NCBI RefSeq assembly: GCF_030013595.1
Contig: NZ_CP122768.1
From: Escherichia coli
GTDB taxonomy: Bacteria > Pseudomonadota > Gammaproteobacteria > Enterobacterales > Enterobacteriaceae
Direction: 5' to 3' (one strand)
DNA: 64,000 bases
Every line of letters begins with the position of its first letter. The first letter of the stretch is position 1. Under the pieces are notes generated by a model. The model was not told where the DNA came from. It ran no database searches and saw only the letters and a program-made list of their open reading frames with translations. A program made the translations under genes and the position numbers. Positions 52,931-53,304 of this stretch are shown here, one piece after another.

Positions 52931-53304
52931 TGTGCAATATTCTCCAGCCAGGGGTTATTAAAATGAGGACCTGGTCTCATTTAAAAATAAATGACTTCAT
53001 TGGGTGAAATAAGAATGTCAGGAGTTTAAACGCAGAAATGTGATCAATGTCAATCATTTCAGGGATTGCAGTGCCGCACGGTAAGGTAAAGCGCAAATCT
53101 GTGCTTTAGCGCGCAACCTTATGTGCATATGCTCAAAATAATATTTAAATAATATTAATTAAATTAGCATTTGCACAATGATTATTATTCTCGCGCTGCT
53201 TATACTAATTCCCGAGTTCATTGCCGTAACGGTATAAATAAAACTCATAAATAACACCTTCCCCATAATAATAAAAATCAGCATAAGTACCCGAGGTAAA
53301 TAAA

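Follow-up and report, generated by a model that had tools for sequence, protein, structure and literature searches.

Promoters that depend on both CRP and a specific activator are exemplified by melAB, which is served by MelR and CRP, and by malE-malK, which is served by MalT and CRP. The genes that make up the CdaR regulon were reportedly described in 2000, and cdaR is said to be autoregulated. In the literature the regulon of CdaR (also SdaR), an activator of the PucR family, consists of garD, garPLRK, gudPXD and cdaR, the same genes that are considered here.

Several promoters of this regulon have found practical use. PgarP has been employed as a promoter responsive to CdaR and to glycerate, and CdaR combined with PgarP or with PgudP has served as a biosensor of glucarate or glycerate. 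In Salmonella, both PgarD and PgarLRK respond to glucarate and galactarate. The use of galactarate and glucarate matters for gut colonisation during inflammation. Other PucR-family activators have been found to bind inverted repeats of 17-24 bp. According to a 2020 paper, CdaR sites had not been determined experimentally by that year; a SdaR site predicted by comparative genomics already exists.

The closest described locus is the garD-garPLRK region of E. coli K-12 (b3128/b3127; NC_000913.3 3274908-3275281, reverse complement). It is the same locus, with the same 374 bp, and the flanking genes and their order are also the same, with prlF-yhaV on one side and garLRK on the other; K-12 differs from the present strain at the strain level only. 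This control region is already known, as is the sugar-acid regulon to which it belongs, and E. coli is the most thoroughly studied of bacteria. In what follows, the window means the whole 64-kb stretch of E. coli DNA that was analysed; its position w corresponds to K-12 coordinate 3328212 - w. That CRP, FNR and Fur bind here and that these genes depend on CdaR is taken from the literature, and the map of CdaR-type boxes and promoters presented here is predicted by sequence comparison.

The garD-garPLRK interval and its conserved blocks

The interval 52931-53304 was recognized, from the list of open reading frames and NCBIfam family matches, as the 374-bp divergent intergenic region of garD and garPLRK. 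On one side, the garD coding sequence (51359-52930, minus strand) encodes a galactarate dehydratase of 523 aa, which matched the equivalog family TIGR03248 with 938 bits and is so annotated by RefSeq in identical E. coli DNA. On the other side, garP (53305-54639, plus strand), the first gene of garPLRK, encodes a transporter of the MFS type for galactarate, glucarate and glycerate (TIGR00893, 457 bits; RefSeq annotation), and garL, garR and garK follow as the next open reading frames on the plus strand, as identified by NCBIfam family matches. The Shine-Dalgarno sequences can be read directly from the DNA: GGAGA for garD (52941-52945, minus strand), 10 nt before the ATG, in a block, ATTCTCCAGC, that is 80-99% conserved among 45 species, and GAGG for garP (53293-53296, plus strand), where the block CCCGAGG is conserved.

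The locus is nearly universal in E. coli. A 651-nt stretch around the region is 100% identical to that of two E. coli isolates from pigs and was present at 95-100% identity, annotated as garD and garP, in 5,421 of 5,426 complete E. coli genomes. A 414-nt stretch centred on the interval has 98.6% identity to K-12 MG1655, and the region was found in 5,417-5,421 of the 5,426 genomes. Pairwise alignment to the K-12 intergenic region revealed 6 substitutions, none of them in any predicted element. Among six E. coli strains, 21 polymorphic sites were identified; the 107 nt of predicted elements described below contain none, against about 6 expected by chance (P about 1e-3), and the A/T tract contains three.

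A scan for GarD, with one genome per species, yielded 80 orthologous loci, in which the divergent arrangement is retained across the Enterobacteriaceae, as garD/garP or, in loci without garP, as garD/garL. Forty-four of the orthologous intergenic regions were aligned with that of the window, giving 45 regions in all. Outside Escherichia, the aligned regions share only 35-60% identity with the window, and despite this low identity conserved blocks occur at 53007-24, 53036-56, 53097-116, 53119-36, 53162-80 and 53196-208. The alignment includes a conserved block at the garD ribosome-binding region on the minus-strand side, followed by AAGAATGTCAGGAG (53011-24; 80-99% conserved in the 45 regions), a CRP-like site (53036-56), CTGTGC.T.AGCGC.CA (53098-115), TGTGCATATGCTCAA (53122-36), AATT.GC......CACAATG (53161-80) and TTATACT (53200-06). 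All 45 regions are free of insertions and deletions from 53063 to 53195, and also over the stretch that separates the garD -10 block from the CRP site. Even the spacer at 53058-53099, which is richer in G+C and variable in sequence, is fixed in length, with 39 nt at 53058-53096 in 45/45 species.

All conserved non-coding blocks lie within 53012-53206. We consider it likely that the interval is a divergent garD/garPLRK control region made of short conserved boxes set at fixed distances over these approximately 195 bp, in which the candidate sites would be the boxes of mixed composition that flank the A/T tract. The preliminary description had attributed 52931-53304 to the garD/garP divergence, and its coordinates and gene identities are borne out by the open reading frames, TIGR03248 and the other family matches. 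It had also placed both promoters and the activator sites inside the interval. The comparison supports this placement, as both predicted -10 elements and the shared candidate box fall within it. The literature reports at least one Fur site outside, in the coding region of garP.

The garP promoter and the CdaR-type boxes

On the garP side, the predicted -10 element is TATACT (53201-53206, plus strand), which is kept in 44/45 species and would place the start of transcription at about 53213 +/-2 (K-12 ~3274999). Comparison of the regions identified two candidate CdaR-type boxes upstream of it. The proximal one, box f, TTAGCATTTGCACAATG (53164-53180, plus strand), is separated from TATACT by exactly 20 nt, and its centre would lie at about -42.5 from the garP start. 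The distal one, box e, TGTGCATATGCTCAAAA (53122-53138), would be centred at about -84.5. Its 14-nt core, TGTGCATATGCTCA (53122-35), is a palindrome at 13 of 14 positions, and its TGTGC is found in 42/45 species. Box e is also the best match in the 64-kb window to a position weight matrix (PWM) of the motif, with 27.5 bits; a further PWM match, at 32777, falls within coding sequence and probably arose by chance.

The same boxes recur at other promoters of the regulon. The 14-mer GCATTTGCACAATG (53167-80) occurs once in the window and has an identical copy upstream of E. coli cdaR; in the garP and cdaR promoters this 14-mer is followed by 20 nt and then by TATACT or TATGCT. The cdaR loci of E. 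coli and six more genera, together with gudP loci from six more sources, were included in the comparison, which thus covered promoters of 7 genera for each of the two genes. With PWMs trained on non-Escherichia gar regions only, the E. coli cdaR promoter site ranked first in its 4-kb locus (16.5-19 bits), and the gudP site TGTGTTGTTGCACGGTG, located 20 nt before TATACT, ranked second in 8 kb with the box-f matrix. At cdaR, the box (T/G)GTGCA(T/A)(T/A)TGCACAATG and TATGCT are conserved in 7/7 genera, and a CRP site lies about 39 bp upstream of the box in the conserved set of 7 genera. The gudP promoters conserve TGTG..G.TGCACGGTG-N20-TATACT, and the distant garD promoters of Rahnella, Pectobacterium, Brenneria, Serratia, Erwinia and Sodalis have the form ..GTCA.TTGCA(C/T)AATG-N20-TATA(C/A)T. 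A box at 79-80 nt from the -10 element, as is the case for box e, also occurs in the gudP and distant garD promoters.

A search with the module pattern box-N20-TAT(A/G)(C/A)T gave 72 matches in 730 kb of fetched DNA, compared with 0.03 expected, a count that is partly circular for the garP orthologues, as the pattern was built from these sequences, and not so for cdaR, gudP and distant garD. Nearly all of the matches are located upstream of garP/garL, gudP, cdaR or distant garD; five are upstream of unassigned genes. Since the module recurs at cdaR, gudP and distant garD, its box, which is box f in the window, is the probable CdaR binding site.

Once the promoters were aligned on their -10 elements, a common architecture was apparent. 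The proximal box is centred at about -42.5 and the distal one, which is weaker and reads TG(T/G)GC...TGC(C/T)..AAA, at about -84.5; a CRP-type site, GTGA-N6-TCAC, has its centre at about -105.5. The distal box lies 42 bp upstream of the proximal one; it is absent at cdaR, where a CRP site is found at about -81.5. In the window, the proximal box corresponds to f (53164-80), the distal box to e (53122-38) and the CRP-type site to d (53100-15). The garP promoter may therefore be viewed, provisionally, as an activator-dependent promoter of the class-II type, in which box f, at about -42.5, would take the place of a -35 element, with box e (about -84.5) and then the CRP-type site d (about -105.5) further upstream. 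A simple sigma-70 scan detected neither the garP nor the garD promoter, its one match being inside garD; this is expected if the promoters are activator-dependent, and the scan lends them no independent support either.

Two other candidate features were discarded. A sigma-54 reading of TTGCA fails on spacing, which does not fit GG-N10-GC, and on the regulator, CdaR having no AAA+ domain. The sequence CATTGTGCAA at the garD start codon (52928-37), an inverted partner of TTGCACAATG in box f, is replaced in other genera by CATTGTCCAG.

The comparison thus provides a concrete candidate operator, TGTGCAwwTGCACAATG, positioned 20 nt before TATACT, and a predicted map of the bases that could be changed in the engineering of these promoters. 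The consequences for genome annotation are small.

The garD promoter and its CRP site

The garD promoter was predicted by conservation. An extended -10 element, TGaCATTCT (53012-53020, minus strand), would direct initiation at about 53005 (K-12 3275207). Its -10-like hexamer, at 53017-53012, occurs in 45/45 regions and the upstream TG in 42/45, and no conserved -10 other than this hexamer at 53017 occurs between the boxes and garD. Upstream of it lies CRP site 1 (53036-53057; core TGTGATCAATGTCAAT, 53039-53054, centre 53046.5), which is known from Footprint-seq literature and was recovered by a consensus scan with a core match of 8/10. The centre of the site is 29.5 bp from the garD -10, a distance that fits a position of about -41.5 from the predicted start, and its TGTGA is found in 40/45 species. 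By Footprint-seq, CRP binds with a Kd of 1.9 nM at K-12 3275166, a position that was assigned to garP/garD, and CRP site 1 also lies under a CRP ChIP-seq peak in ETEC.

The extended -10 TGaCATTCT together with a CRP site at about -41.5 would form a class II geometry, with CRP as the probable promoter-proximal activator for garD. CRP site 1 is absent from three Enterobacter loci, which means that class II control by CRP does not extend to every garD. The site also resembles an FNR site (GTGATCAATGTCAA), its right half having drifted toward an FNR half-site in E. coli, and a published FNR ChIP-seq peak and predicted FNR site, TTGACATTGATCAC, map to it. The published CRP site, like the FNR, Fur and H-NS inputs that the literature reports, had not been anticipated in the preliminary description.

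A search with the module pattern found no CdaR-type box or module facing garD in the E. coli-type regions. CdaR induction of garD would therefore have to come from the boxes located about 100-125 bp upstream, which are shared with garP. From this arrangement we infer that garD may be activated from more than 100 bp upstream, either by way of a CRP-induced bend or within one larger complex of CdaR and CRP. The invariant distances that separate the garD -10, the CRP site, d, e, f and the garP -10 suggest that one fixed complex could serve both promoters. A promoter of garD driven directly by box e or by site d was also considered and rejected, as no -10-like hexamer occurs 20 nt away in the direction of garD.

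A tentative history can be proposed for this arrangement, to which we would give rather less than an even chance. The E. coli-type garD may have lost the proximal CdaR-type box that is still present in Rahnella, Pectobacterium, Serratia and Erwinia, a class II CRP site now taking its place; d, e and f would then serve both promoters, with CdaR acting from more than 100 bp from garD. Escherichia might in addition have acquired the extreme A/T spacer and a Fur-like box, bringing H-NS and iron control to the region.

The A/T run, site d and alternative readings

The interval is highly AT-rich, as the preliminary description stated: its G+C content of 35.0% is low compared with 50.8% in the 64-kb window, a value that just 2.7% of 374-nt windows equal or fall below. 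The AT-richness is uneven, with 45% G+C at 53036-53135 versus 28% at 53136-53304. Positions 53135-53166 form a run of 32 nt containing only A and T, the longest such run in the 64-kb window and of a length that was reached by 2 of 20,000 shuffles of the region. Most of this run, 53136-53163, constitutes the spacer of 28 bp that separates box e from box f, counted from one 14-nt core to the other.

The length of the e-f spacer is invariant, 28 nt in 45/45 aligned regions. Its AT content is 96-100% in the three Escherichia rows, compared with a mean of 78% (61-96%) in the other species. The sequence of the tract is not conserved in the 45-region alignment, column identity being mostly 10-60% over 53147-53163, and it is not kept even in Citrobacter or Enterobacter. 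Within E. coli the tract is polymorphic at 53152, 53153 and 53155, in all three cases by an A/T-to-G/C change. The A at 53152 of the present strain, in place of the G of K-12, joins two A/T runs into the single 32-nt run; G is found at this position in all five comparison strains (K-12, O157:H7, O111:H8 and two divergent strains), and the present strain is thus the only one of them all with an unbroken run. The equivalent spacers between distal and proximal boxes in the gudP and distant garD promoters are 44-80% AT, which means that the architecture can do without a spacer of A and T only.

The A/T run is thus a fixed-length spacer whose extreme composition is specific to the lineage and the strain. 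Its length would matter and its sequence would not, and the extreme AT content probably adds susceptibility to H-NS and Fur, or bendability, rather than a specific operator. A caution follows for similar descriptions, as the most conspicuous feature of the region, the A/T palindromic run, is its least conserved part.

A Fur-box-like sequence, GAGAATAATAATCATTGTG (53174-53192, minus strand), was identified by consensus scan between box f and the garP -10. It agrees with the Fur consensus at 15/19 positions, the best match in the whole window, and is located just downstream of the A/T run, overlapping the end of box f; the A/T tract itself scores lower for Fur than the neighbouring sequence. In the 45-region alignment the Fur-like sequence is common to the Escherichia rows only. 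An information-theory study described the Fur cluster that it found at garPLRK as weak, its major site scoring 10.4 bits, and placed a stronger Fur site, confirmed by gel shift, inside the garP gene. garP has been counted among the Fur-bound operons, and an EcoCyc-derived table gives Fur, CdaR and H-NS as its regulators. We assume that 53174-53192 corresponds to the published Fur site.

These data allow the A/T tract to be seen mainly as a silencing overlay, by which H-NS, together with Fur at the neighbouring Fur-like box, would occupy the AT-rich stretch and hold garP and garD off, and which the Escherichia lineage would have added to a core controlled by CdaR and CRP. The regulators in the EcoCyc-derived table, the place of garP among the Fur-bound operons with the weak cluster predicted at garPLRK, the best Fur match of the window at 53174-53192 and an e-f spacer that is more AT-rich in Escherichia (three rows) than elsewhere are all consistent with it. 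Against it, a microarray study quoted in the literature found garPLRK to be activated by Fur and not repressed, and the best Fur match adjoins the flagged tract rather than lying inside it. Silencing as the main role of the tract is plausible and still somewhat improbable in our view; it is compatible with, and not exclusive of, the preferred explanation by short boxes at fixed distances.

Site d, TGTGCTTTAGCGCGCA (TGTGCATCAGCGCCCA in other genera), at 53100-53115, was classed by comparison as a CRP-type site. Measured from the predicted starts, its centre would lie at about -105.5 relative to garP and at about -102.5 relative to garD. Its TGTG(C/G) is present in 45/45 species, and it was reported as the second CRP motif beneath the ChIP-seq peak of CRP in ETEC. 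In position it corresponds to the GTGA-N6-TCAC sites of the gudP and distant garD promoters. Site d has an unusually conserved centre and shares its left half with box e, for which reason CdaR may also contact it; it could be a site of CRP, of CdaR or of the two together.

One alternative takes site d not as a CRP site and treats it, with box e, as a tandem CdaR pair serving garD, formed by direct TGTGCAT repeats 22 bp apart. The identical left halves (TGTGCAT) are conserved in more than 90% of species at both d and e, conservation of the central bases of d goes far beyond what the spacer of a CRP site requires, and the strong half-sites of d and e are both oriented toward garD. This pairing nevertheless seems unlikely, as GCGCCCA, the right half of d, is conserved at a spacing that agrees with a CRP site of 16 bp and not with a 14-bp box, plain CRP-type GTGA-N6-TCAC sites occupy the position of d in the gudP and distant garD promoters, and the d sequence itself was chosen as a CRP motif under a CRP ChIP-seq peak.

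The preliminary description had also drawn attention to palindromic A/T tracts, quoting aatatttaaataatattaattaaatt, which maps to 53140-53165, and had implied that such palindromes are an operator for CdaR or another dimeric regulator. Inverted repeats are indeed present in the A/T run, for example a 14-nt pair with 93% complementarity found by repeat search, and this part of the description stands. They are no better than chance, as 2,569 of 5,000 shuffles of the tract gave a perfect palindrome at least as long, which is expected because the tract consists of A and T only. The location of the tract between the two promoters and the 17-24-bp inverted repeats bound by some PucR-family regulators would be in keeping with an operator. 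The palindromes are, however, unconserved even in Citrobacter or Enterobacter and are interrupted by the three A/T-to-G/C polymorphisms within E. coli, the quoted palindrome being broken in K-12; moreover, the gudP and cdaR promoters, which answer to the same regulator, have no such tract, the equivalent spacers being 44-80% AT. As sites, the A/T palindromes thus fared poorly, and an operator formed by them is very improbable.

Even less credible are a leader RNA structure or a small RNA gene in place of protein sites: the large intergenic spacer and the short GC hairpins at 53060-53085 in several species are suggestive, but no Rfam match was found (YenS came closest with 16.9 bits, where the gathering score is 80), folding of the predicted leaders of garD and garP did not surpass that of shuffled sequences (z +0.88 and -0.72), a hairpin in the G+C-richer spacer is not significant (mean z -0.6, no alifold consensus structure), and relative to either predicted start the conserved blocks are located upstream.

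The preferred reading, a control region of short boxes at fixed distances, can be set beside several known systems. The 14-17-bp box described here is comparable in size to the inverted repeats of 17-24 bp bound by PucR-family activators. Like Fur boxes and H-NS-bound AT-rich promoters, the region combines a 15/19 match to the Fur consensus with a very low local G+C content, whereas the published Fur cluster at the garPLRK promoter is weak (10.4 bits) and the gel-shifted site lies inside garP. The predicted garD promoter resembles class II and tandem-CRP promoters in the lack of a -35 element and in a CRP site centred 29.5 bp from the -10, which would put it at about -41.5. Unlike those class II comparators, its start is a predicted one, and its activator, of the PucR family, would act from beyond -100. 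As in tandem-CRP promoters and in promoters that combine CRP with a specific activator, further sites are located upstream at fixed helical spacings, here in a divergent region whose sites would be shared by the two promoters.

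Extra module copies and cluster arrangements

Further copies of the module formed by a CdaR-type box, a 20-nt spacer and TATACT or TATGCT were found in comparison loci from other genomes. In Pectobacterium and Brenneria they lie on the minus strand, 3' of a gudP-like transporter gene (at about position 807 of locus L061, 681 of L063, 777 of L064 and 678 of L066), and in Serratia inhibens the copy is found 3' of garD, also on the minus strand (at about 5772 of L079). These extra copies suggest further members of the regulon. In Cedecea lapagei (L093) and Serratia fonticola (L094), garD is divergent from gudP-gudD and not from garP, and the two sugar-acid clusters are united around a single control region. 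Within the window itself, TGGGCATTAGCACCCAT (32777-32793, minus strand) has a combined-box PWM score of 16 bits; it sits within a coding region (32399-33079) and was rejected as probably a chance match.

Secondary signals at garP and garK

The strand opposite the garP -10 element TATACTA (53201-53207) reads TAGTAT, a -10-like hexamer kept in 44 of 45 species, which could support divergent transcription. A comparable mirror hexamer, AAGAAT, occurs on the plus strand at 53011-53016, within the garD -10 block. Inside garP, some 60-80 nt into the gene, an AT-rich stretch (53361-53385) contains two overlapping matches to the Fur consensus, each at 13 of 19 positions; they may represent the Fur site within garP for which Chen et al. 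(2007) reported a gel shift. The mechanical ORF of garK (56361-57587) encodes 408 aa, of which the family model covers residues 28-408, and the true start probably lies 27 codons further in, which would yield a product of 381 aa, the same as in K-12.

In E. coli strain 29A20CPO013, an IS1 element adjoins garP (locus L100, 1-1699). Homology to the window starts there within box e, the distal CdaR-type box (53122-53138), with the breakpoint at window position 53126, indicating that this strain has lost garD, CRP site 1, the CRP-type site d (53100-53115), half of box e and also some of the aga cluster.

CRP site 1 among genera

Three Enterobacter loci in which garL is divergent from garD (L015, L018 and L030) gave no CRP site 1 match in their intergenic regions, which are short compared with most. 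All other blocks are retained, and the distance from the garD -10 box to the garP -10 is 25 bp less in L015 and L018. The predicted class II control of garD by CRP is therefore not universal. The E. coli site, TGTGATCAATGTCAAT (53039-53054), agrees with the FNR consensus as well, at 8 of 10 positions, in keeping with a published FNR ChIP-seq peak at garP/garD; CRP site 1 in other genera shows a cleaner CRP palindrome, TGTGATC..GATCAC, than the E. coli form.
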